Virus record (IMG/VR): IMGVR_UViG_3300032307_000516
Coordinates: 8,050 to 72,049 of that record
Direction: 5' to 3' (one strand)
From: a virus
Length of the DNA stretch: 64,000 bases
The notes under the pieces are model-generated. The model worked only from the letters and a program-made list of their open reading frames with translations, was not told where the DNA came from and ran no database searches. The translations under genes were made by a program, and so were the position numbers. Shown piece by piece: positions 1-16,302 of the stretch; within the stretch, counting starts at the first letter, position 1; every line of letters starts with the position of its first letter.

Positions 1-1
1 T

Positions 2-211
2 TTTCAAAATGCAGAAGGTGAAGATACAACAATAGAAATTGCTGGCGCTTCTGAGCCAGAATATGTTGGAAGTTCAATGGTAAGCAATATCGAGATGATC
101 GAAGATTCAAGCTCTGACGGAAAAAAATATTCAATCGTTGGATATTACGATGAAGTGCCTGGTCAAGACGGTGAATATGAGCTTAAAAAAGTACTAGTAG
201 AAGAAATATAA
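2..211 (+). CDS. 3' end of hypothetical protein (truncated by window)
   Basis: Open frame from base 2 to TAA at 209-211 (FQNAEGED...VLVEEI). Confidence 0.7.
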   Translation, partial: FQNAEGEDTTIEIAGASEPEYVGSSMVSNIEMIEDSSSDGKKYSIVGYYDEVPGQDGEYELKKVLVEEI

Positions 212-213
212 TC

Positions 214-495
214 ATGTCAATCAGAGTCTATTCAGGATACGATGAATTTAAGTTCGAGGAAGAAGAAATCTGCGAATATTTAGAATCCGATTTCTCAGAT
301 TCAAACGATGATGATGAATCAGATGATGTATTTTTTTATACTGAATCTAAAATAGATTTTAGAGACGATGCTGATTTTTATATAATCTGTGATACAGAGG
401 ACGAGGAGACAGCAGAGGATATAGCTTCTTATTTAGGTAAGGCTAAAAAAATAAATTTAGAAGATTTTAGGAAATCATTTTTTTATATAAGATAA
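214..495 (+). CDS. acidic hypothetical protein
   Basis: 93-aa ORF, D/E-rich, follows previous ORF by 2 nt. Confidence 0.7.
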   Translation: MSIRVYSGYDEFKFEEEEICEYLESDFSDSNDDDESDDVFFYTESKIDFRDDADFYIICDTEDEETAEDIASYLGKAKKINLEDFRKSFFYIR

Positions 496-501
496 AATAT
501 C

Positions 502-539
502 TATATTTGTGAAACAAAACAACAAATAAGATATATAAA
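502..539 (+). promoter_or_regulatory. promoter region of tRNA operon 1 (TATATTTG; GAAAC-N17-ATATA; GATATATA)
   Basis: Bacteroidota -7 box TAnnTTTG at 502-509 plus two motifs that recur upstream of many genes in the window. Confidence 0.55.
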
Positions 540-545
540 GTTTAA

Positions 546-605
546 ATGAAAACAATACTTAACATATTACCTTCAATATTAAGACCGTCGATAAGACGAT
601 CCTAA
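546..605 (+). CDS. leader peptide 1 (MKTILNILPSILRPSIRRS)
   Basis: 19-codon uORF rich in ATA/TTA/CCN/TCN/AGA, matching downstream tRNAs; stop overlaps antiterminator. Confidence 0.85.
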   Translation: MKTILNILPSILRPSIRRS

Positions 606-670
606 AGGTCCTGTGTTAATAAAAAATAATCATTAACTAAACCGGGACCTTTAAAAGTCTCGGTTTTTTT
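603..670 (+). terminator. attenuator 1: antiterminator 603-613 / terminator 639-670
   Basis: AAACCGGGAC/GTCTCGGTTT hairpin plus U-tract; TAAAGGTCCTG can alternatively pair with CGGGACCTTTA (643-653). Confidence 0.85.
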
Positions 671-671
671 A

Positions 672-684
672 TGTTCTTTGACAT
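672..684 (+). promoter_or_regulatory. boxA-like antitermination element
   Basis: TGTTCTTTGACAT resembles rrn boxA (TGCTCTTTAACA); recurs before each tRNA block. Confidence 0.7.
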
Positions 685-700
685 GTTGGATTATCAAATT

Positions 701-787
701 GGAGAGGTGGCAGAGCCTGGTTTATTGCACCGGTCTTGAAAACCGACGTAGTGAAAGCTACCGGGGGTTCGAATCCCTCCCTCTCCG
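701..787 (+). tRNA. tRNA-Ser(TGA)
   Basis: Cloverleaf with long variable arm, anticodon loop CTTGAAA. Confidence 0.95.
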
Positions 788-792
788 CATTT

Positions 793-866
793 GGTCCGCT
801 AGCTCAGCTGGATAGAGCAACTGCCTTCTAAGCAGTAGGTCTCAGGTTCGAATCCTGAGCGGATCA
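793..866 (+). tRNA. tRNA-Arg(TCT)
   Basis: Cloverleaf, loop CTTCTAA. Confidence 0.95.
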
Positions 867-1033
867 CACAAATCCCTCTGCCTAGCGCTGGGTATGGATC
901 GAAGATAGAATATGCCTCTACACCGTAGACAGGTAGGATACCTCGGTATTCTTTAATGATATGCACACTTATTCTCCAAATCGTTGGTTGGCACAGTTTG
1001 TATGTTCTGGTGATACTTAAAGACATACAATTT

Positions 1034-1106
1034 CGGGATGTAGATCAGTTGGTAGATCGCCTGGTTTGGGACCAGGAGGCCCCAGGTTCGAGTCCTGGTA
1101 TCCCGA
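1034..1106 (+). tRNA. tRNA-Pro(TGG)
   Basis: Cloverleaf, loop TTTGGGA. Confidence 0.95.
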
Positions 1107-1109
1107 CTA

Positions 1110-1172
1110 CGGAGGCTGTAAAGTCAAACAGTGAAGAATTTAAAGGATGACATCTTTAAATCCCTCCGACCA
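1110..1172 (+). ncRNA. small three-way-junction RNA ending in ACCA
   Basis: CGGAGG/CCTCCG closing stem followed by ACCA; two internal hairpins. Confidence 0.5.
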
Positions 1173-1173
1173 T

Positions 1174-1247
1174 AGAGGCGTAGCTCAATTGGTTAGAGCA
1201 CATGCCTTATACGCATGCGGTCACGAGTTCGACTCTCGTCGTCTCTA
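1174..1247 (+). tRNA. tRNA-Ile(TAT)
   Basis: Cloverleaf, stem CATGC/GCATG, loop CTTATAC. Confidence 0.9.
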
Positions 1248-1251
1248 CTTA

Positions 1252-1325
1252 GGTCCCTTAGCTCAGTAGGTTAGAGCAACTGACTCATAATCAGTAGGTC
1301 CACGGTTCGAGCCCGTGAGGGACCA
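1252..1325 (+). tRNA. tRNA-Ile2(CAT), lysidine type
   Basis: Loop CTCATAA; body (GGTCCCTTAGCTCAG...) resembles bacterial Ile2; separate fMet and Met genes exist. Confidence 0.85.
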
Positions 1326-1416
1326 CAAAGATACGGATGAGATTTCTAAATCTCCTACTTACTTATGAAAAGAAGGATTCCGTAACTAATACCATATAGT
1401 AGTGATGGTATTGTCT

Positions 1417-1499
1417 GCCCGGATGTTGAAATAGGTAGACAAGACGGACTTAAAATCCGTTGGCCATTGGTCGTGAGGGTTCAAGTCCCTCTCCGGGTA
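1417..1499 (+). tRNA. tRNA-Leu(TAA)
   Basis: Cloverleaf with variable arm, loop CTTAAAA. Confidence 0.95.
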
Positions 1500-1504
1500 C
1501 AAAT

Positions 1505-1611
1505 ATAATAGTGGCAGAGAGGCTTAATGCTGAGCATACATAGAGTCTGGGAATGTGGTATGTATGATACCTATACACGGGGACTCGCAGGTTCGAATCC
1601 TGTCTATTATA
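1505..1611 (+). ncRNA. tRNA-like RNA with replaced anticodon arm
   Basis: Acceptor ATAATAG/CTATTAT, D arm, T arm GCAGG-TTCGAAT-CCTGT, 56-nt non-canonical centre. Confidence 0.6.
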
Positions 1612-1614
1612 TAT

Positions 1615-1719
1615 ATAGGAGTGGCGGAAGCGTGATCTTTGCAAAGGTCCGATAGATAGACGACAGGGTGTCATACCCGAGAATGAAAGTTCATATTGGT
1701 GCAAGTCCAATCTCCTGTA
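1615..1719 (+). ncRNA. tRNA-like RNA with D-loop insertion and aberrant anticodon arm
   Basis: Acceptor ATAGGAG/CTCCTGT, Leu-like TGGCGGAA...TAGACG, T arm ATTGG-TGCAAGT-CCAAT. Confidence 0.55.
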
Positions 1720-1743
1720 CTTTTTTGATATATATAAAGAATC

Positions 1744-2115
1744 ATGAGTGAACATATTAAGATATCAGGAATGGGTATAGAAATATACAAAAATGATATA
1801 CCAGGTGTAAGATGGAATAAAGCTCAGTCTTTTGCTCAGATTCTTGGAGATGGATGGAGATTACCAACTTTAGAAGAACTTGCTTTAATAAGATCAATAA
1901 GAAATATAGGTGATATAGGAAGATTTCCTGTAGAATATTCGGATTTTTCCGATTCATATTACTGGAGTAACGAAGAACGCGAATTTACTACTAAAAAAAT
2001 GATGGGAAGTAGTCTTAAAAGTACCTATGCTTACTTTTTTGATATGGCTGAAGGAACTTCTTCACACAATAAAAAGTCATACGAGCTTAGGGCTAGATTT
2101 GTTAGAGATATATAA
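1744..2115 (+). CDS. DUF1566/Lcl-like domain protein
   Basis: GWRLPTLEEL, YYWS and C-terminal RARFVR motifs. Confidence 0.7.
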   Translation: MSEHIKISGMGIEIYKNDIPGVRWNKAQSFAQILGDGWRLPTLEELALIRSIRNIGDIGRFPVEYSDFSDSYYWSNEEREFTTKKMMGSSLKSTYAYFFDMAEGTSSHNKKSYELRARFVRDI

Positions 2116-2118
2116 ATC

Positions 2119-2895
2119 ATGCCAACAACAAGAGCATTTGCATATAATCCAGCACAAGCAACAATTTCTGGAACTACAAATATAGGTACATTATGTGTAG
2201 GTGTATCTGCTTTAAATTACGGAGGAAATCCTGGTGGATTAACTTGGTGGATGGGTCCGGACGAGGATAATTCTTATGTTATAGCTAAGGATGTGCCAAC
2301 AGCAGACTTCCCTACTCCAGTAGGTAATGTTGGTAATGTACAATTTTGGAGATGTTCTAACAACAGCTCAGAATTCACTAATCTTGTTACATTAATAAGT
2401 GGTACTACACAAGCATCTGCTTCTGCTGCTCAATCGTGGCTATCAACAAATAATTATTGGACTAATTACACTAGCGGAGTAACTTTCTCACAACCTTTTG
2501 TAAATGGTACTGCACCAACAAATGCAGTAGAAACTGCTTGGAATACATTTAGAGCATCTTTAACAGGTTCTTATACACAATTTGTTGTATCTAATTCATT
2601 AGGGTTTAGTTTAACAGTAAGTCATGCTACTTCAGTACAGACTTTGGCAAATGCACTAAGAAATGCAACAAATAATACCTCGGTAACTATAAACAGCGTA
2701 GTTTGGAGAGTAGGAACAGGATGTGGAACTCCTAAAATAGGTGGGGTTGCTGTTGAATTTTCCAACGTAGCAAGCTGTAGTTCATCAAGTACTATAGCAT
2801 TTAGACCTATGATTAATAACTTAAACTGGGGAGGTATGGGTACAGGATCTACTGTAGGACAGGCTTCACAAACAATGACACTAACATTTAGCTAA
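2119..2895 (+). CDS. hypothetical protein, probably virion-associated (T/S/G/N-rich)
   Basis: 258-aa ORF preceded by GATATATA motif. Confidence 0.7.
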   Translation: MPTTRAFAYNPAQATISGTTNIGTLCVGVSALNYGGNPGGLTWWMGPDEDNSYVIAKDVPTADFPTPVGNVGNVQFWRCSNNSSEFTNLVTLISGTTQASASAAQSWLSTNNYWTNYTSGVTFSQPFVNGTAPTNAVETAWNTFRASLTGSYTQFVVSNSLGFSLTVSHATSVQTLANALRNATNNTSVTINSVVWRVGTGCGTPKIGGVAVEFSNVASCSSSSTIAFRPMINNLNWGGMGTGSTVGQASQTMTLTFS

Positions 2896-3047
2896 TGGAA
2901 ACTTATAGAATAATAGACTTAAGAGTAACCCCAAATGAAATAGTACCAGGTAAGGAATCTGTTACTTTAGAAGAGGGACAATTATGGATAGACGAGAACG
3001 GAGGAGATTGTCCATTGTGCGACTATACGCTATTAATCAATGAATAA
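2895..3047 (+). CDS. small hypothetical protein (50 aa, CxxC)
   Basis: TAATG overlap with upstream gene; METYRIIDL...DCPLCDYTLLINE. Confidence 0.55.
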   Translation: METYRIIDLRVTPNEIVPGKESVTLEEGQLWIDENGGDCPLCDYTLLINE

Positions 3048-3153
3048 ATGTAGATTTTTTAAAATAATTTGAAAAAAATACAAAAAACATTTTTTTAAAC
3101 GGGAACTTTTCCGTACTTTTGGAGTATATAATAAAAAAGGAACAAAACTTTCA

Positions 3154-3243
3154 ATGAAACACTTTTTAAATATCGAAATGGATCTTCAGCTTCTAAAAGG
3201 AGACGAACGTCTTGAGGATACAAATAAGTGTCAGAGGAAATAA
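3154..3243 (+). CDS. leader peptide 2 (MKHFLNIEMDLQLLKGDERLEDTNKCQRK)
   Basis: 29-codon uORF rich in GAR, GAY and CTN codons, matching downstream Glu/Asp/Leu(TAG) tRNAs. Confidence 0.8.
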   Translation: MKHFLNIEMDLQLLKGDERLEDTNKCQRK

Positions 3244-3293
3244 ATTTATATAAAGATATAATTTAAACCTCTGATAACCTCAGAGGTTTTTTT
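3229..3293 (+). terminator. attenuator 2: antiterminator 3229-3237 / terminator 3265-3293
   Basis: AAACCTCTGA/TCAGAGGTTT hairpin plus U-tract; TGTCAGAGG pairs alternatively with CCTCTGATA. Confidence 0.85.
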
Positions 3294-3301
3294 GTTTTAT
3301 A

Positions 3302-3314
3302 CGCTCTTTGAAAT
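3302..3314 (+). promoter_or_regulatory. boxA-like element
   Basis: CGCTCTTTGAAAT. Confidence 0.65.
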
Positions 3315-3317
3315 TAT

Positions 3318-3392
3318 GGTCCCTTCGTCTATCGGTTAGGACGTTAGGTTTTCATCCTAGAAAGAGGGGTTCGATTCCCCTAGGGACTACCA
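3318..3392 (+). tRNA. tRNA-Glu(TTC)
   Basis: Cloverleaf, loop TTTTCAT, encoded CCA. Confidence 0.95.
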
Positions 3393-3397
3393 GAAAA

Positions 3398-3471
3398 GGT
3401 CCTACAGTCCAGTTGGAGTGGACGCCGCCCTGTCACGGCGGAGATCGCGGGTTCGAGTCCCGCTAGGACCG
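3398..3471 (+). tRNA. tRNA-Asp(GTC)
   Basis: Cloverleaf, loop CTGTCAC. Confidence 0.95.
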
Positions 3472-3569
3472 CTAAAACTTATGCTACATAGAGCAAAGCA
3501 GAAAGGTACGATCTGGTACACTATGAAGTACAAATAGAAAGTCAGATCATAAGTTTTAAAAAATTATAT

Positions 3570-3642
<73 letters not shown>

Positions 3643-3856
3643 CTAATAAGTTATTTGAAATATTTGCGAAAAGTTCGATGGAATCAATTATAGGTCCAGG
3701 GCACAAATCCGTGTGAGGAATCCAATTGATAGAAGAACCTTCTACTGAGTAATGCACGTACACGTGATATCCATAGAAAAGTCCTAATAAGTTAAAGGCA
3801 AAGGAGTTGATAATACCGGTTAAAAACAACTTTATCTCTTTAGATAGCAAATAAAT

Positions 3857-3936
3857 GCCCTCGTGGTGGAATTGGTAGACACGCTAGACTTAGGATCTAG
3901 TGCGAAAGCGTGAGAGTTCGAGTCTCTCCGAGGGTA
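3857..3936 (+). tRNA. tRNA-Leu(TAG)
   Basis: Cloverleaf with variable arm, loop CTTAGGA. Confidence 0.95.
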
Positions 3937-3938
3937 CT

Positions 3939-4436
3939 ATGAAAGTTATATTTTTAGATTTTGATGGTGTTCTTAATCTTATACCTCAAGGACATGACTA
4001 TTACGGAGGGATTTTTCACCCTGAATTTGTCGGCAACCTAGGTAGGATTATAGAGGAAACTGGAGCAAAACTTGTGATAAGCTCTTCGTGGAGAACTATG
4101 GGATTGGAAAGACTTAGAATGATGTGGGAACATCGTTTATATCCAGGAGACATCATAGGAGTTACCCCAGATCTTAGATGGAGGACAAAAAAAGATGCTA
4201 TGGAATTAAACGAAGTCGAGTACGTTAGAGGAGATGAAATAGAGTCATGGCTAAATCTACATCCGGAGGTAACTAATTATGTTATACTTGACGATGATGA
4301 TGATATGTTACAATCACAAAGAATAAACTTTGTAAGAACATCTGATAATATTAATCATCCTGATTGCATTGATATAGGATACGGATTAACTAATATTTGT
4401 TCTAACGATGCAATTAGAATTTTAAACAGAAAATAA
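3939..4436 (+). CDS. HAD-superfamily phosphatase (HAD_SAK_2-like)
   Basis: MKVIFLDFDGVL, SSSWR, RGDEI, YVILDD motifs; start corrected to the ATG after tRNA-Leu. Confidence 0.85.
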   Translation: MKVIFLDFDGVLNLIPQGHDYYGGIFHPEFVGNLGRIIEETGAKLVISSSWRTMGLERLRMMWEHRLYPGDIIGVTPDLRWRTKKDAMELNEVEYVRGDEIESWLNLHPEVTNYVILDDDDDMLQSQRINFVRTSDNINHPDCIDIGYGLTNICSNDAIRILNRK

Positions 4437-5005
4437 TGAAAGTTATATTTTTAGATCATGATGGAGTAATTTGTCTTTCCCAGCAATTTGGTGGGCGTTA
4501 CAAAAAGCAGACTAAAGCTAGAACTAAGCTTTCTCAAAACGTGATGGATTTTCCAGTCGATGCTAGATTTGATAACTTCGATAAGAAAGCTATTAAAGTT
4601 CTAAACCTAATCTTAGAAGATACTGGAGCTGAAATAGTTGTTTCTTCTGATTGGAAGAACTGGGCAAATGTTGAAGAAATGGGCGAATATTACGAACAAC
4701 AAGGTATAATTAAAAAGCCTATTGATTTTACACCTAGAGAATACACAATGCCAGAGAAACAAGAATGGCATCCAGACTGGGATTTAGAAGCATCAAGAAC
4801 TTTAGAAATCCAAGAATGGCTAAAAGATCATCCAGAGGTTACTCATTGGGTAGCAATAGATGATTTAGATATGAGCTTTAAAGAGGTATCAAATAATAGA
4901 AGCGGTACTGGCTGGGGCTTAAAAAACTTTGTACACACCCCAAGTATCACTGAAGGGATTAAAAAAATGGGTATAAAAGAAAAAGTTTTAAAATTTTTAA
5001 AATAA
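4436..5005 (+). CDS. HAD-superfamily phosphatase (HAD_SAK_2-like), paralog
   Basis: FLDHDGV, SSDWK, WVAIDD motifs. Confidence 0.85.
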   Translation: MKVIFLDHDGVICLSQQFGGRYKKQTKARTKLSQNVMDFPVDARFDNFDKKAIKVLNLILEDTGAEIVVSSDWKNWANVEEMGEYYEQQGIIKKPIDFTPREYTMPEKQEWHPDWDLEASRTLEIQEWLKDHPEVTHWVAIDDLDMSFKEVSNNRSGTGWGLKNFVHTPSITEGIKKMGIKEKVLKFLK

Positions 5006-5088
5006 TTTCAAAAAACATTTTTTTATTTAAAAAATATATTGTACTTTTACGAAACTATTCTGGAAACAGGATATATAATTAAGAAAAA

Positions 5089-5196
5089 ATGAAAAACTGT
5101 AGTAAACATAACATCAATCGCATGAACAGTCAAATTAATGGCTGCTATCAAACGGTGGCGTTTTGGGCTAAGGGGAAAGAACCCGATCGAAGCTAA
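5089..5196 (+). CDS. leader peptide 3 (MKNCSKHNINRMNSQINGCYQTVAFWAKGKEPDRS)
   Basis: 35-codon uORF; first 30 codons use exactly the 16 amino acids whose tRNAs lie downstream. Confidence 0.88.
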   Translation: MKNCSKHNINRMNSQINGCYQTVAFWAKGKEPDRS

Positions 5197-5255
5197 TACA
5201 GAAAATCATAATTAGATATTTTGGAAAAGGCTTCGATTTAATCGAAGCCTTTTTT
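5185..5255 (+). terminator. attenuator 3: antiterminator 5185-5194 / terminator 5225-5255
   Basis: AAAAGGCTTCGAT/ATCGAAGCCTTTT hairpin plus U-tract; GATCGAAGCT pairs alternatively with GGCTTCGATT. Confidence 0.85.
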
Positions 5256-5258
5256 ATT

Positions 5259-5271
5259 TGTTCTTTGACAT
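5259..5271 (+). promoter_or_regulatory. boxA-like element
   Basis: TGTTCTTTGACAT, identical to 672-684. Confidence 0.7.
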
Positions 5272-5283
5272 ACTGGAAAAAAT

Positions 5284-5356
5284 GGTACCGTAGCTCAGTT
5301 GGTAGAGCACTAGACTGAAAATCTAGGTGTCGCCGGTTCGATTCCGGCCGGTACCA
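5284..5356 (+). tRNA. tRNA-Phe(GAA)
   Basis: Cloverleaf, loop CTGAAAA. Confidence 0.95.
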
Positions 5357-5427
5357 CAATACTAAACAAGAAATTGTCTCACTAAACTAATCATGTTTAG
5401 TATTACAAAAACAAGTTTAGTAACAAT

Positions 5428-5501
5428 GATCTCGTAGCTCAGTTGGCTAGAGCACCTCACTTTTAATGAGGGAGTCGAGGGTTCGAGCCCCTCCGGGATC
5501 A
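5428..5501 (+). tRNA. tRNA-Lys(TTT)
   Basis: Cloverleaf, loop CTTTTAA. Confidence 0.95.
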
Positions 5502-5507
5502 CTACAC

Positions 5508-5580
5508 ACGTCAGTAGCTCAATTGGTAGAGCGTTGGTCTCCAAAACCAAAGGTCGTAGGTTCGATTCCTACCTGGCGTG
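5508..5580 (+). tRNA. tRNA-Trp(CCA)
   Basis: Cloverleaf, loop CTCCAAA. Confidence 0.95.
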
Positions 5581-5586
5581 CTAAAA

Positions 5587-5659
5587 GGCTCTGTAGTTCA
5601 AGGGATTAGAATGGATCACTACGGATGATCTGATCCTGGTTCGAATCCAGGTGGAGTCT
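5587..5659 (+). tRNA. tRNA-Arg(ACG)
   Basis: Cloverleaf, loop CTACGGA. Confidence 0.9.
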
Positions 5660-5670
5660 CAAACAAATAA

Positions 5671-5742
5671 GGTCGTGTGGTCGAGTGGTTTAGGCACTAG
5701 TCTGCAAAACTAGTTATACTGGTTCAATTCCAGTCACGGCCT
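5671..5742 (+). tRNA. tRNA-Cys(GCA)
   Basis: Cloverleaf, loop CTGCAAA, U73. Confidence 0.92.
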
Positions 5743-5759
5743 CAAAAAATGTAAGAAGT

Positions 5760-5885
5760 ATGAAAATAGTTATTGAAGGAAAAATGAAATCGTCGAATCA
5801 CAGATTAAATGCGATTCCAGTTAAAATTGAAAGAAAAAATTCTCTAATCAAAAGAATCAAAAGATTGATTAATAAAGGAAAGTAA
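5760..5885 (+). CDS. small basic hypothetical protein (41 aa)
   Basis: MKIVIEGKMKSS...RLINKGK fills the spacer; stop lies inside tRNA-Ser(GCT). Confidence 0.4.
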   Translation: MKIVIEGKMKSSNHRLNAIPVKIERKNSLIKRIKRLINKGK

Positions 5886-5962
5886 TCTCAGATGGTGACG
5901 GGGCTCGCCTGCTAAGCGAAGCGTACCTTAATTGGTATTTGGTTCGATTCCAATTCTTTCCG
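5877..5962 (+). tRNA. tRNA-Ser(GCT)
   Basis: Loop CTGCTAA, long variable arm; slightly imperfect stems. Confidence 0.85.
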
Positions 5963-5968
5963 CAACAT

Positions 5969-6042
5969 TGACATATAGCTCAGTTGGTTAGAGCGTTGAT
6001 CTGATACGTCAAAGGTCGAAGGTTCGAATCCTTCTATGTCAA
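5969..6042 (+). tRNA. tRNA-Ile(GAT)
   Basis: Cloverleaf, loop CTGATAC. Confidence 0.93.
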
Positions 6043-6058
6043 CTTAAAAATTATAAAA

Positions 6059-6085
6059 ATGAAAAAAGAATTTGACAACTTGTAG
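6059..6085 (+). CDS. 8-aa uORF MKKEFDNL whose TAG lies in a hairpin
   Basis: A-rich leader, ATG...TTG TAG; CTTGTAGG/CCTACAAG hairpin abuts the ATG at 6106. Confidence 0.45.
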   Translation: MKKEFDNL

Positions 6086-6105
6086 GTTTAATTAAACCCT
6101 ACAAG

Positions 6106-6297
6106 ATGAGTAAAAACACAAACAGAGCAAAACTGAACAAAGCAATGAATGGTAGAGAACACAGAAACATTTTAAATAATGCTCTTTATCCTCCATACAG
6201 TGAATATGATCACACATGGTGGCATGGAAATTTATCCAATCACAAATGGAGATCATACAAAACCTGGAAACACAACAGAAAAACAAAATGGAAGTAA
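6106..6297 (+). CDS. small basic Trp/Lys-rich hypothetical protein
   Basis: 63-aa ORF ending WRSYKTWKHNRKTKWK. Confidence 0.65.
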   Translation: MSKNTNRAKLNKAMNGREHRNILNNALYPPYSEYDHTWWHGNLSNHKWRSYKTWKHNRKTKWK

Positions 6298-6308
6298 TTC
6301 CATTTTAC

Positions 6309-6381
6309 AGTCTCTTAGCTCAGTTGGTAGAGCGCTTGGTTTACATCCAAGATGTCGGGGGTTCGAGCCCCTCAGGGACTA
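6309..6381 (+). tRNA. tRNA-Val(TAC)
   Basis: Cloverleaf, loop TTTACAT. Confidence 0.95.
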
Positions 6382-6384
6382 CAA

Positions 6385-6537
6385 GATTAGAAGCGGTAGA
6401 TTTGGTTACTTCGCACTTTTAATGCCCGTGTCGGGGGTTCGAATCCCTCATCTAGCTCCATAGCAGATCCTAGGATTTGTGCTAGATTAGCTCAGCGGTA
6501 GAGCAGGTTCCAAACCAAATCTAAATATTCTCTAATC
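6385..6537 (+). ncRNA. scaffold RNA copy 1 enclosing a circularly permuted tRNA-Lys(TTT)
   Basis: 3' tRNA half 6413-6460 precedes 5' half 6481-6507; flanks GATTAGA/TCTAATC and AGATTTGGTT/AACCAAATCT pair. Confidence 0.85.
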
Positions 6538-6545
6538 CTAATATT

Positions 6546-6629
6546 GATTAGAAGCGGTGAAAGGGGTTACTTCTCAAAACCTTGTAAATTTTTGACCAAA
6601 AAACCACCCCGATTAAATATTCTCTAATC
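6546..6629 (+). ncRNA. scaffold RNA copy 2 without tRNA cargo
   Basis: GATTAGAAGCGGT...GGTTACTTC...TAAATATTCTCTAATC repeated, with a different inner stem GGGGT/ACCCC. Confidence 0.75.
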
Positions 6630-6635
6630 AAAACT

Positions 6636-6707
6636 GGGGATGTAGCTCAGCGGTAGAGCTCCCGACTGTTAATCGGTAGGTCGCTGGTTCGAATCCAGCC
6701 TTCCCCG
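6636..6707 (+). tRNA. tRNA-Asn(GTT)
   Basis: Cloverleaf, loop CTGTTAA. Confidence 0.93.
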
Positions 6708-6743
6708 CAATTCAGAGTGTTGAGCAATTGGTTGCTCAGCTGA
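6687..6743 (+). repeat. direct repeat copy 1 (tRNA-Asn 3' end plus truncated tRNA-Tyr 5' part)
   Basis: Near-identical to 7870-7927. Confidence 0.85.
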
Positions 6744-6780
6744 TAAAAGAATATATTATATTTAGATTCAATTTTAAGTT

Positions 6781-7716
6781 ATGACAGGATACCATATATA
6801 CTACCAAACATCAGAAGATGGAGAATATGAGCAAATAAATTATTTAGTTCAATTAGCTTCAATTTTAAATTGGAAAAAGAATTATGGCCCCATCAAATTG
6901 TATTGTAACCAAAGATTTCTAGAGTCTATATCCAAATATGGAATTGATAAAGAATATGATTTTATTGATACTGAGTATTTAGAATCAGTTCCATATAAAG
7001 ATAGTATGTCGACATTTTGGAGCTTTTGCAAAATTTATGTCGCTAAAAAGATTGTCGAAACTGAATCGGAATTTTGTATTTTAGATACTGATTTATGGAT
7101 TCAAGCGCCTGACTTATTAAGTCAAGAACATGATTTAGTTTTACATCACGCTGAAGCTTATGATCTAAATTATGATCGCAACCCATATCCAGATCCTAGA
7201 AATTGGTTAATTGAGTCAGAGATAGAAGAATATGATTGGAATACCTCTCCCGCAAATTGCGCGATATTGTATTTTAAAAATAAAAGTAAAGAGTTAATAG
7301 ATGCTTGGTATGAATTTGCAATTAAAATAGTAGAGCGTCATAAAGATAATAATACAGAACCGAATTTGCGTTGCGGTACTATTTTTATCGAGCAACGTCT
7401 ATTACCTACAATAGCAAAGAAAATGGGTATATCAATGACGGTCGTGTCTCCTTGTACTTATTTAACTTGGATACCAGCTTCATTGGCTGATGGGCGGGAA
7501 TGGAGGCCTTCATTAGATTATTCAGAACGATCTTTATATATTGGTTCTAATATTAAACATGTATGGGGAGCAAAAAAGTTTTATTCTGAAAATTGGATTC
7601 GGGAGTTAATAATTGACAATGCTATGATAGGAATTAATTTAGTTCAGAATCAAGAAAGAAAGTATTTTAAGTTATACAGTGATGTGCATGAAGTGCATCC
7701 AAAAAAATATATTTAA
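6781..7716 (+). CDS. DUF6734-like / GT-A glycosyltransferase-like protein
   Basis: GPIKLY, FWSFCKIY, hydrophobic strand plus DTD (DxD), EQ motif. Confidence 0.6.
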   Translation: MTGYHIYYQTSEDGEYEQINYLVQLASILNWKKNYGPIKLYCNQRFLESISKYGIDKEYDFIDTEYLESVPYKDSMSTFWSFCKIYVAKKIVETESEFCILDTDLWIQAPDLLSQEHDLVLHHAEAYDLNYDRNPYPDPRNWLIESEIEEYDWNTSPANCAILYFKNKSKELIDAWYEFAIKIVERHKDNNTEPNLRCGTIFIEQRLLPTIAKKMGISMTVVSPCTYLTWIPASLADGREWRPSLDYSERSLYIGSNIKHVWGAKKFYSENWIRELIIDNAMIGINLVQNQERKYFKLYSDVHEVHPKKYI

Positions 7717-7785
7717 AATAAATTAAAAAATATTTGGTACTTACAAATGGTAACACCTTATATTTATATATAGTTAAAAAGAAAT

Positions 7786-7799
7786 AGTTCTTTAAAAAT
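7786..7799 (+). promoter_or_regulatory. boxA-like element
   Basis: AGTTCTTTAAAAAT directly upstream of tRNA block. Confidence 0.5.
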
Positions 7800-7802
7800 A
7801 TT

Positions 7803-7891
7803 GGAAGGGTGACAGAGTTGGTCTATCGCGCCGGTCTTGAAAACCGGTGAACTCGAAAGGGTTCAGTGAGTTCGAATCCAACCTTCCCTCG
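7803..7891 (+). pseudogene. chimeric pseudo-tRNA-Ser(TGA) with Asn-derived 3' end
   Basis: Ser-type 5' part and variable arm intact; T stem and acceptor mispair because sequence after GTTCGAATC matches tRNA-Asn. Confidence 0.75.
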
Positions 7892-7927
7892 CACTTCGGA
7901 GTGTTGAGCAATTGGCTGCTCAGCTGA
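7870..7927 (+). repeat. direct repeat copy 2
   Basis: Near-identical to 6687-6743. Confidence 0.85.
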
Positions 7928-7981
7928 CTGTAAATCAGCCGCCTTACGGCATTGGGGGTTCGAATCCCTCCGCTCCGACCA
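7897..7981 (+). tRNA. tRNA-Tyr(GTA), C1:G72
   Basis: Loop CTGTAAA, variable arm, encoded CCA. Confidence 0.93.
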
Positions 7982-7984
7982 AAT

Positions 7985-8059
7985 GCAGGTATCGTATAAC
8001 GGTCATTACTTCTGACTTCCAATCAGAAGATCTCGGTTCGATTCCGGGTACCTGCTCCA
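7985..8059 (+). tRNA. tRNA-Gly(TCC)
   Basis: Loop CTTCCAA, U73, CCA. Confidence 0.95.
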
Positions 8060-8062
8060 AAT

Positions 8063-8102
8063 GCCGGGTGATCCTCTCGTTGAATCACGAGAGCCGGCTC
8101 CA
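8063..8102 (+). ncRNA. 40-nt minihelix-like RNA ending TCCA
   Basis: GCCGG/CCGGC-T-CCA stacked on CTCTCGT/ACGAGAG hairpin. Confidence 0.5.
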
Positions 8103-8103
8103 C

Positions 8104-8177
8104 GGGGGATTAGCTCAGTTGGCTAGAGTACTTGCCTTGCACGCAAGGGGTCATCGGTTCGAATCCGATATCCTCCA
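8104..8177 (+). tRNA. tRNA-Ala(TGC)
   Basis: Loop CTTGCAC, G3:U70. Confidence 0.95.
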
Positions 8178-8186
8178 CTTTTATAT

Positions 8187-8259
8187 GGCGAGTTAGCTCA
8201 GTTGGTAGAGCGTCGGAATCATACCCCGAAGGTCGGCAGTTCGAACCTGCCACTCGCTA
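8187..8259 (+). tRNA. tRNA-Met(CAT), elongator
   Basis: Loop ATCATAC, paired 1:72. Confidence 0.9.
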
Positions 8260-8261
8260 CT

Positions 8262-8338
8262 GTGACGGTAGCTCAGTTGGTTAGAGCGTCTGATTGTGGT
8301 TCAGAAGGTCGGGGGTTCGATTCCCCTCTGTCACCCCA
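8262..8338 (+). tRNA. tRNA-His(GTG)
   Basis: Loop TTGTGGT, C73, CCA. Confidence 0.93.
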
Positions 8339-8339
8339 T

Positions 8340-8412
8340 GCCTTTGTAGCTCAGCTGGTAGAGCGCTTCACTTGTAATGAAGATGTCGCAGGTTCGATCC
8401 CTGTCAAAGGCT
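8340..8412 (+). tRNA. tRNA-Thr(TGT)
   Basis: Loop CTTGTAA. Confidence 0.95.
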
Positions 8413-8418
8413 CTATAA

Positions 8419-8491
8419 TGTCCTGTGGTGTAATTGGCAACACGTCTGATTTTGGTTCAGAAGAGTCCAGGTTCGAGCCCTGGCGGGACAT
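8419..8491 (+). tRNA. tRNA-Gln(TTG)
   Basis: Loop TTTTGGT, U1:A72. Confidence 0.95.
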
Positions 8492-8537
8492 CTAAAAAAT
8501 AAGATAAATACAATAACCAGTATGTAAAAATAGAGCT

Positions 8538-9026
8538 ATGAAAGTGCTAGTATTAAATAATGACTTTACGCCTATAAGCGTTACCGATTTTGCCCGGGGA
8601 TTTAAGCTTGTATATAAAGGTAAAGCAGAAATTTTAGAGCACGATGAACAAAACCCAATTGTTACTGATCAAAGCACCTACAAAAGACCATCAGTAATTC
8701 GACTTCTAAAGTATGTTGTTTTGCCTTTCAAAAAGCTAAAACCTACAAGGGAAAATATCTTTAAAAGAGATGAGATGAAATGTATCTATTGTGATACATC
8801 AAAAAATCTCACAATAGATCACGTTTTTCCCAGATCTAGAGGTGGTGGTAACACATGGGAAAATTTAGCTACATGCTGTTCAAAATGTAACGGTAGAAAA
8901 GGAGATAGAACCCCGGAAGAAGCCGGAATGAAAATGAGACAAAAGCCATTTAAACCCGGATATGGCTATTTCATAAGGAATTTTTCCAAAGGAATAGATG
9001 TGTGGACAGCATATCTTCCAGATTAA
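8538..9026 (+). CDS. HNH endonuclease (McrA-like)
   Basis: CxYC, TIDHVFPRSRGG, WENL, CxxCN motifs. Confidence 0.9.
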   Translation: MKVLVLNNDFTPISVTDFARGFKLVYKGKAEILEHDEQNPIVTDQSTYKRPSVIRLLKYVVLPFKKLKPTRENIFKRDEMKCIYCDTSKNLTIDHVFPRSRGGGNTWENLATCCSKCNGRKGDRTPEEAGMKMRQKPFKPGYGYFIRNFSKGIDVWTAYLPD

Positions 9027-16244: not shown

Positions 16245-16302
16245 GGAAACATTTTTTTATAAACAAAATAATAGTTACATTTACACTAATAAAATAATCG
16301 AT

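Follow-up and report, generated by a model that had tools for sequence, protein, structure and literature searches.

Predicted codon-sensing leader-peptide attenuators ahead of three of the four tRNA blocks of a phage with Bacteroidota-type signals

Why do phages carry transfer RNA (tRNA) genes, and how is their expression controlled? Both remain open questions, and they are raised sharply by a stretch of virus DNA in which tRNA genes sit behind elements that look like the attenuators of amino-acid operons. The window, by which we mean the whole 64-kb stretch analyzed here (positions 8,050 to 72,049 of IMGVR_UViG_3300032307_000516), is part of a 72-kb IMG/VR virus record with an estimated completeness of about 25%. 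ARAGORN with default settings reports 26 tRNA genes in it, every one on the + strand and within 701-8492, and these fall into four transcription units. Units 1 to 3 share one order of parts: promoter, short upstream open reading frame (uORF), intrinsic terminator, boxA-like motif, tRNAs. We consider it probable that these leaders are multivalent ribosome-mediated attenuators, in which stalling of a ribosome on any codon read by the tRNAs of the block would free an antiterminator, so that each block would be under negative feedback from its own tRNAs.

The initial annotation of this DNA, made from the letters alone, had described three tRNA operons, all of them attenuated. The promoters, uORFs, terminators and boxA motifs that it listed for blocks 1-3 are all present at the positions it gave. 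The inventory needs correction. There are four units, and the last has neither uORF nor terminator ahead of its tRNAs; and block 3 also includes a tRNA-Ser(GCT) at 5877-5963, the 27th tRNA, which default ARAGORN misses and which is found at -ps95 (the Rfam match there is sub-threshold and tRNA-Sec-like).

One line of evidence for the proposed reading is the codon content of the uORFs. As a null we used the codon usage of the phage itself (51 long open reading frames, ORFs) and standard wobble rules, with U34 relaxed unless strict rules are stated. Counting after the start codon, 13 of the 18 codons of leader 1 are read by the tRNAs of block 1 (4.1 expected, P=1e-5), a match that for this leader rests on the whole-uORF count. 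Leader 2 has 11/28 codons in the set of block 2 (5.2 expected, P=0.008), and leader 3 has 21/34 in that of block 3 (11.2 expected, P=6e-4). In relatives, the tRNAs of unit 4 run on directly from block 3, behind leader 3, and when blocks 3 and 4 are combined, leader 3 has 31/34 codons in the set. When a leader is compared instead with one of blocks 1-3 that is not its own, the match is at or below expectation in all six cases, and so it is for all three leaders against block 4.

The match extends to the choice between synonyms. Ile, Ser, Arg and Leu have their isoacceptors in different blocks, which allows a test conditioned on the amino acid: among the 25 codons concerned, 22 are the synonym that the leader's own block reads (12.7 expected, P=1.7e-5). 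As an example, both Arg codons of leader 3 are CGN and all three of its Ser codons are AGY, forms that make up only 10% and 24% of the phage's Arg and Ser codons. The initial annotation had claimed that each leader uses the codons read by its own operon, and this stands: the own-block match is above what codon usage predicts, specific to the block, and present at the level of isoacceptors. A match at the level of codons and isoacceptors would be difficult to account for if ribosomes did not read the frames.

The position of the codons is also informative. Out-of-set codons concentrate at the two ends of a uORF: among its first 2-6 codons, and in its tail, where the sequence is part of the antiterminator strand or borders on it. 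Upstream of the antiterminator footprint, 27/27 codons of leader 3 are read by block 3 and block 4 tRNAs, and 10 of the 20 sensing codons of leader 2 are in its set (3.7 expected). The out-of-set codons of the tails (Glu, Pro and Asp in leader 3, 5179-5193; Thr, Asn, Lys, Cys, Gln, Arg and Lys in leader 2, 3220-3240) are read by tRNAs of other blocks. A ribosome stalled on one of them would mask the antiterminator, so that cross-talk between blocks is conceivable.

An attenuator also requires two mutually exclusive structures, and the leaders can form them. Each uORF has, at its 3′ end, a strand complementary to the 5′ arm of the terminator that follows (Table 1). The initial annotation had put the complementary segment at 9-11 nucleotides (nt); the complementarity is there, with measured lengths of 8, 9 and 10 contiguous pairs in leaders 1, 2 and 3, respectively. 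In leader 1 the contiguous pairs are at 606-613, and the nascent fold has about 14 pairs. Wobble pairs lengthen the contiguous pairings in the window leaders. We compared duplex energies with 2000 shuffles per leader, and the observed value is reached by 0.1%, 0.05% and 0.6% of them in leaders 1, 2 and 3: P=0.001 for leader 1 (duplex of -15.6 kcal/mol), P(dG)=0.0005 for leader 2 and P(dG)=0.006 for leader 3. Five other terminators of the window have no upstream complement to their 5′ arms (P 0.07-0.96). A scan of 1-9000 for terminator-like hairpins gives 8 sites where 5.4 are expected, and the leader hairpins are the three strongest and the only long ones. Whole leaders also fold more stably than their shuffles, with z = -4.2, -3.0 and -5.0.

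Table 1. Features of the four tRNA units, by position in the window.
Feature	Position	Strand	Description
Promoter 1	476..509	+	CATTTTTTTA-N16-TATATTTG; -7 box TATATTTG at 502-509, Bacteroidota type TAnnTTTG
Leader uORF 1	546..605	+	MKTILNILPSILRPSIRRS, 19 amino acids
Antiterminator strand 1	602..613	+	overlaps stop codon; partner 643-653
Intrinsic terminator 1	639..673	+	hairpin 639-666, 10-bp stem, 8-nt loop, T-run; -12.9 kcal/mol
boxA-like motif 1	673..683	+	GTTCTTTGACA
tRNA block 1	701..1500	+	Ser-TGA, Arg-TCT, Pro-TGG, Ile-TAT, Met/Ile2-CAT, Leu-TAA (ARAGORN, Rfam)
Promoter 2	3088..3121	+	CATTTTTTTA-N16-TACTTTTG; -7 box TACTTTTG at 3114-3121
Leader uORF 2	3154..3243	+	MKHFLNIEMDLQLLKGDERLEDTNKCQRK, 29 amino acids; Glu, Asp, Met and Leu(CTN) abundant in codons 8-22
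Antiterminator strand 2	3229..3237	+	TGTCAGAGG; partner 3268-3276
Intrinsic terminator 2	3265..3296	+	hairpin 3265-3289, 10 pairs, T-run; -12.5 kcal/mol
boxA-like motif 2	3304..3313	+	CTCTTTGAAA
tRNA block 2	3318..3937	+	Glu-TTC, Asp-GTC, Met-CAT, Leu-TAG (ARAGORN, Rfam)
Promoter 3	5016..5049	+	CATTTTTTTA-N16-TACTTTTA; -7 box TACTTTTA at 5042-5049, one letter off TAnnTTTG
Leader uORF 3	5089..5196	+	MKNCSKHNINRMNSQINGCYQTVAFWAKGKEPDRS, 35 amino acids
Antiterminator strand 3	5185..5194	+	GATCGAAGCT; reaches stop codon; partner is the terminator 5′ arm
Intrinsic terminator 3	5222..5260	+	hairpin 5222-5256, 16-pair stem, 3-nt loop, T-run; -19.2 kcal/mol
boxA-like motif 3	5261..5270	+	TTCTTTGACA
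tRNA block 3	5284..6708	+	Phe, Lys, Trp, Arg-ACG, Cys, Ser-GCT, Ile-GAT, Val, Asn (ARAGORN, Rfam)
Unit 4	7733..8492	+	promoter 7733-7766; boxA with one mismatch 7788-7797; tRNAs 7802-8492: Ser-TGA, Tyr, Gly, Ala, Met, His, Thr, Gln

Folding both conformers, a step that the initial annotation had suggested, gives the two states expected of a switch. When the nascent RNA ends at the terminator loop, with no 3′ arm yet made, it folds into the antiterminator helix in 3/3 window leaders. When pairing is barred within a ribosome-sized footprint at the stop codon, the computed fold is the terminator, again in 3/3. In the full-length folds of leaders 1 and 3 the antiterminator strand is sequestered upstream, which may or may not correspond to the pause or anti-antiterminator (1:2) hairpin that synchronizes ribosome and polymerase in known attenuators; in that of leader 2 it is not sequestered. 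Across families, antiterminator pairing in the nascent RNA is found in 15/16 leaders examined. The predicted elements are thus those by which an attenuator is recognized: a leader ORF, cognate codons, mutually exclusive structures, and a terminator directly before the genes.

Are these features kept by evolution? We scanned IMG/VR with protein anchors and with patterns, and obtained more than 200 loci (L numbers below). For 106 tRNA blocks the upstream sequence was long enough to assess; a terminator is present within 90 nt in 46 of these blocks, and a boxA-like motif in 59. Unique terminator-bearing upstream regions number 27, and in 26 of them a uORF of 19-37 codons ends 18-33 nt before the stem; the lone exception is the end of a real gene. 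A second pass found a short uORF in 42 of 47 unique boxA-linked hairpin regions. The initial annotation had left the conservation of the uORFs in question, and in the relatives the reading frames are kept, with changes of length that are in frame. uORF 1 is a 19-codon ORF in L004, L010 and L029, while in L005 an indel shifts its stop beyond the antiterminator segment. uORF 2 is kept in L003, L010, L018, L031 and L032 (25-30 amino acids), and uORF 3 in L003, L005, L010, L018 and L025, with a 33-amino-acid form in L031 and L032. In leader 2 of L031 and L032, the terminator stem and the segment at the uORF end are both altered, and the complementarity is retained.

The same arrangement recurs in leader families unrelated to those of the window (the L040 type, L106, L127, two in L174, L183 and L209). 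Each has its own antiterminator sequence of 7-14 nt, wholly different from the others yet complementary to its partner, and its leader composition resembles the downstream tRNA set. Like the three window uORFs, which all begin ATG-AAA, leaders across families start with ATG (one with GTG), mostly as ATG-AAA, and their stop is at or near the antiterminator. One leader appears to have been retuned. Relative to its family consensus, the diverged L053 leader has 8 changed residues, and 8/8 of the new ones are amino acids served by its reduced block of six tRNAs (Trp, Ile, Phe, Gly, Asp, Gln); Asn and Lys codons are gone along with the Asn and Lys tRNAs. With a frequency of 0.34 for the codon set of the block, the chance estimate is about 0.34^8 = 2e-4.

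The pattern is also seen in a cultured phage. Cellulophaga baltica phage phi4:1 (KC821632.1; L256) came up solely via tRNA similarity. Its tRNA blocks number three, and a TTG...TAtgTTTG promoter, a uORF and a terminator stand ahead of every one; the leaders A, B and C are at 2124-2192, 3084-3167 and 4830-4928, respectively. Leader A, MKIQRLHLQELEQPIISGGTGV, precedes Pro, Glu, Gln, His, Leu, Leu and Arg-ACG; leader B, QLTKTGITVIDKTKGARAYLGDTVIG, which has a GTG start, precedes Ala, Lys, Ile, Gly, Met, Asp, Thr, Val, Arg-TCT and Met; and leader C, MKTNYCTYNNSNWSFSYDTGSVCTLGSDGLIG, precedes Tyr, Ser, Ser, Asn, Trp, Phe and a Cys-like tRNA. Own-block matches for A, B and C are 11/21, 21/26 and 16/31, where 5.2, 12.2 and 7.7 are expected, and every off-diagonal entry of the 3x3 leader-block matrix is below expectation. 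The Arg codon is CGT ahead of Arg-ACG and AGA ahead of Arg-TCT. We pooled 11 leader-block pairs, drawn from 6 phages, and permuted the pairing; 0/200,000 permutations attained the observed sum of own-block matches. As to the existing annotation of phi4:1, gp075 (3048-3167) is leader peptide B with its annotated start inside the promoter, and gp076 (5176-5277), which overlaps tRNA-Ser(TGA) at 5171-5254, is probably not a gene.

What is the motif that follows each terminator? The exact form YTCTTTGAMA occurs three times in 64 kb (674, 3304 and 5261), each time between a terminator and the first tRNA, which begins 14-27 nt further on. Only the exact form is informative; with one mismatch allowed there is no enrichment in the window (44 sites vs. 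40.8 expected). The genomes that match GTTCTTTGACATAYTGG, a 17-mer common to several phage leaders, are for the most part Bacteroidota (Pedobacter, Mucilaginibacter, Chitinophaga and others), and many of the matches are on ribosomal RNA (rRNA) contigs of about 5 kb. Of 122 sites in bacterial genomes, 67 lie 139-877 nt past the 3′ end of 16S, and 26 of the remaining 55 have too little upstream sequence to tell. In Pedobacter hartonius (L261), the spacer tRNAs are followed first by the 17-mer and then by the 23S gene. By sequence, the motif is the boxA that Bacteroidota have in their 16S-23S spacers, so that the phage has taken over an rrn antitermination signal of its host lineage. Its place after the attenuator suggests that only polymerases that have passed the checkpoint would become processive across the untranslated array.

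The promoters also point to the host. The composite CATTTTTTTA-N16-TAnnTTT(G/A) has 4 copies in 64 kb, against 0.01 expected; three head the leaders, with the uORFs starting 36-39 nt past the -7 boxes. The fourth, at 16250, heads ordinary ORFs with no attenuator, and the motif is thus not specific to leaders. As a correction to the initial annotation, the last letter of the third -7 box is A, not G. A second class of promoter, TTTGGTACTT...TATATTTA (7733-7766), heads block 4, and has several copies in the relative L002. We also considered a hidden promoter between terminator and tRNAs, and rejected it, as there is neither space nor a -7 box; with no room for one, blocks 1-3 would be transcribed only by read-through. 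According to excerpts of a Flavobacterium transcriptome study (PMC9723704), the -7 consensus there is TAnnTTTG and Shine-Dalgarno sequences are absent. The same excerpts describe leader-peptide attenuation as likely ahead of amino-acid operons, so the host machinery would be competent for it. Promoter boxes, missing Shine-Dalgarno sequences and boxA all indicate a host among the Bacteroidota. When the phage collection was searched for cultured relatives, at the DNA and the protein level, it returned only tRNA matches and one 25%-identical Aeromonas phage protein, and the phage of the window appears to be without a close cultured relative. Outside Bacteroidota, we looked at six tRNA block starts in Stenotrophomonas phage Moby, Shewanella phage Thanatos-1, Escherichia phage EcS1 and Bacillus phage BMBsp2: five have no T-run of at least 5 within 200 nt upstream and the sixth has a T5 following an A+T-rich hairpin, in a sample of four phages of other host phyla that is too small to confine the device to Bacteroidota phages.

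Put together, these elements suggest the following sequence of events. A host-type promoter would start the transcript, and the short uORF would be translated while it emerges. If decoding is prompt, the ribosome would arrive at the 3′ end or the stop codon of the uORF and cover the antiterminator strand, the terminator would form, and the polymerase would stop before the tRNAs. A shortage of the charged tRNA for one of the codons, which would be the physiological trigger, would hold the ribosome up earlier; the antiterminator strand, still free, would capture the 5′ arm of the terminator and the polymerase would read through. This polarity of the switch we infer because of the geometry of the leaders. 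The polymerase would then cross the host-type rrn boxA, probably loading a Nus antitermination complex, and transcribe the block. Because the uORF is written in the codons of the block's own isoacceptors, the result would be a multivalent OR-gate with a negative feedback loop: the block would be made if any of its own tRNAs is limiting, and left off if all are plentiful. The interpretation proposed initially, ribosome-mediated attenuation of the tRNA blocks, is supported by the folds, the codon match, the conservation and the unrelated families, phi4:1 included.

Several observations weigh against it. The match of leader 2 is modest, and under strict wobble it drops to 8/28 (P=0.07). The minimum-energy fold of full-length leader 2 retains the antiterminator, and its default state may thus be read-through. 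Each codon occurs only 1-4 times per leader, far below the his or leu leaders, and sensitivity to a single tRNA may be low. Leaders before large blocks are individually non-significant (P=0.16-0.35 for L106, P=0.07-0.15 for L060). In phi4:1, the antiterminator strand of leader C is 32-42 nt before the stop, too far upstream to be covered by a ribosome parked there, and the imperfect terminator of leader B was not resolved by our folding script. Block 4 of the window and both L002 blocks have a promoter and a boxA and no attenuator, so that control of this kind would be optional. Moreover, identical leaders precede blocks that differ by gained or lost tRNAs (e.g. Asn, Lys, Thr, Ala, Val), and because of this the tuning of leaders lags behind tRNA gene content. 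The co-variation of leader codons with anticodon sets that the initial annotation proposed to look for is therefore found in part: the L053 leader is retuned, but recent gains and losses of tRNAs are not always tracked. Finally, three freshwater runs (metatranscriptome or metagenome) hold 5-8% of sampled words, with contigs that are mostly tRNA matches, many from other organisms. Contigs from two of the runs, both of RNA (90-95% alike), extend across terminator 2 (3196-3314) and terminator 3 (5182-5502) into boxA and tRNAs. The neighboring protein genes are uncovered in the same runs, and the contigs, which as such reveal no transcript ends, may be read-through RNA of a relative or DNA carry-over; we count them neither way.

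How do other explanations fare? The leaders could be translation-coupled attenuators that report general translation capacity, rather than shortage of the tRNAs encoded downstream. That each codon is present just 1-4 times would fit such a sensor, as would the presence of most amino acids in leaders before large blocks, and excerpts of PMC8421152 and PMC10272220 describe an Anabaena tRNA array induced by general translational stress. A general sensor needs neither block-specific codons, with off-diagonals depleted in two unrelated phages, nor an isoacceptor-level choice of synonyms (22/25), nor a retuned leader like that of L053, and we hold it to be unlikely. We give somewhat less weight still to constitutive or leaky terminators, with uORFs that are incidental or that stabilize the transcript, and tRNA levels set by the promoters together with processive antitermination, at boxA or through a phage factor. 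Such an arrangement would sit well with a boxA after every terminator and with block 4 and the relative L002, which manage without attenuators. Being downstream of the terminators, however, boxA is unable to suppress them, and conserved uORFs with in-frame indels, antiterminator complementarity and the codon match would all go unexplained.

A third class of explanation dispenses with the ribosome as sensor. The leader RNA could sense tRNA or protein directly, in a T-box-like or protein-mediated way, or the uORFs could encode functional micropeptides; leader codons could in principle pair with anticodons, and the peptides are conserved within families. Yet a T-box covariance model has no match at E<=1 within 1-9000, and the sole match at that cutoff to the leader families of Rfam is Thr_leader at 573-673, with 22.9 bits (E=0.9) against a gathering score of 55, which does not make it a member. 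All families have a start codon and an open frame whose stop coincides with the antiterminator or lies close to it, and between families the peptides are unrelated and their composition follows the tRNA set. This explanation we regard as very improbable.

Ribosome-mediated attenuation of each block by its own tRNAs remains the reading we prefer, and it admits a wider version, possible although rather unlikely, in which the leaders form a phage surveillance network for the decoding pool. OR-gate leaders would re-supply a set of tRNAs once any one of them has been depleted, e.g. through anticodon nucleases of the host or because the phage causes host tRNAs to be lost; RNA-repair-type neighbors would take part, and the tail codons would impose order or cross-talk among blocks. 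The link to host anticodon nucleases is conjecture. As for the neighbors, two tandem HAD_SAK_2 proteins, of the RNA-repair-type HAD class, are encoded at 3939-5005, between tRNA blocks 2 and 3, and a TROVE (Ro60-like) protein about 1.2 kb upstream of leader 1 (G000:C1:5721-7367, L382). They fit a theme of RNA damage, and provide context only.

The tRNA region has other features of note. Small ORFs and tRNA-like elements are interspersed among the tRNA genes of block 3, and a DUF6734-like ORF (6781-7716) with its own promoter sits between block 3 and block 4. At 1501-1722 and 6385-6629 there are elements resembling tRNAs or Y RNAs, which ARAGORN leaves uncalled at its default setting; an Rfam YrlA match at 6425-6509 has 28 bits, which is sub-threshold, and ARAGORN -ps90 reports an odd tRNA-Lys(TTT) at 6381-6460. 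In relatives (L037, L038, L050, L077 and others), tRNA blocks are interrupted by HNH-endonuclease-like ORFs, and the tRNA region of L031 includes, near position 4767, a tRNA whose anticodon, TTA, would decode the stop codon TAA.

If the proposed mechanism is correct, these phages would gauge, one codon at a time, the capacity for decoding, and produce tRNAs when they are needed. Classical attenuation, known from amino-acid biosynthesis, would then also cover the tRNAs themselves, with direct feedback by the product; it would occur in viruses, and its sensor would be multivalent, for as many as 16 amino acids. From sequence alone, the leaders would also indicate which codons are limiting for a phage inside its host. 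And because the device is present in the cultured phi4:1, it can be tested at the bench. The class of mechanism is that of the leader-peptide attenuators; its application to phage tRNA blocks is apparently undescribed in the literature we searched, as we found no account of leader-peptide attenuation of tRNA genes in full-text literature, a coverage that excludes supplements and subscription journals.

The nearest published case of a regulated accessory tRNA array appears to be the trn operon of Anabaena sp. PCC 7120, a long tRNA array that, in the excerpts of PMC8421152 and PMC10272220, is silent and induced under translational stress. As proposed for the phage, an accessory array is kept off until translation is impaired, and RNA-repair genes (rtcB) are, in the same excerpts, co-regulated with it. 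There, on the other hand, control is described as acting at the promoter, by direct repeats and the repressor TrcR, and the system is neither codon-specific nor phage-derived; the strings 'attenuat', 'leader' and 'terminator' are absent from the main text of PMC8421152. With the boxA (Nus-factor) antitermination of rrn operons, the phage motif shares the 17-mer found in Bacteroidota 16S-23S spacers. It differs in that the phage copy heads tRNA blocks behind a predicted conditional terminator, where Nus factors would be loaded.

Attenuators are also found before genes of the translation apparatus, such as the pheST leader, ahead of an aminoacyl-tRNA synthetase gene. A His leader before hisS paralogues in bacilli, and T-boxes before synthetase genes, are described in excerpts of PMC2965389. 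In these, as in the phage proposal, a component of the translation apparatus is controlled by sensing the charging or decoding of tRNA. They regulate synthetases, however, and sense one amino acid each, and the T-box binds uncharged tRNA without a ribosome.

The enterobacterial leaders of amino-acid operons include multivalent ones, thr (Thr, Ile) and ilvGMEDA and ilvBN (Ile, Leu, Val), along with the trp, his, leu and phe leaders. They share with the phage leaders a short leader ORF rich in regulatory codons and mutually exclusive antiterminator and terminator hairpins, and for the phage side we propose the same polarity, with termination when the ribosome is at the leader end and read-through when it is stalled. 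General descriptions of the class are given in excerpts of PMC1183508 and PMC3082878. Whereas enterobacterial leaders have runs of one to three amino acids, the phage leaders list 4-16, mostly once or twice each and at the level of isoacceptors. The phage leaders also have Bacteroidota-type signals, no Shine-Dalgarno sequence, a boxA after the terminator, and no membership in an Rfam family. By analogy, the multivalent thr and ilv leaders seem the closest in logic to the phage device, with one essential difference: they regulate biosynthetic enzymes, whereas the phage leaders precede tRNAs, and the species that would be sensed is the gene product itself.

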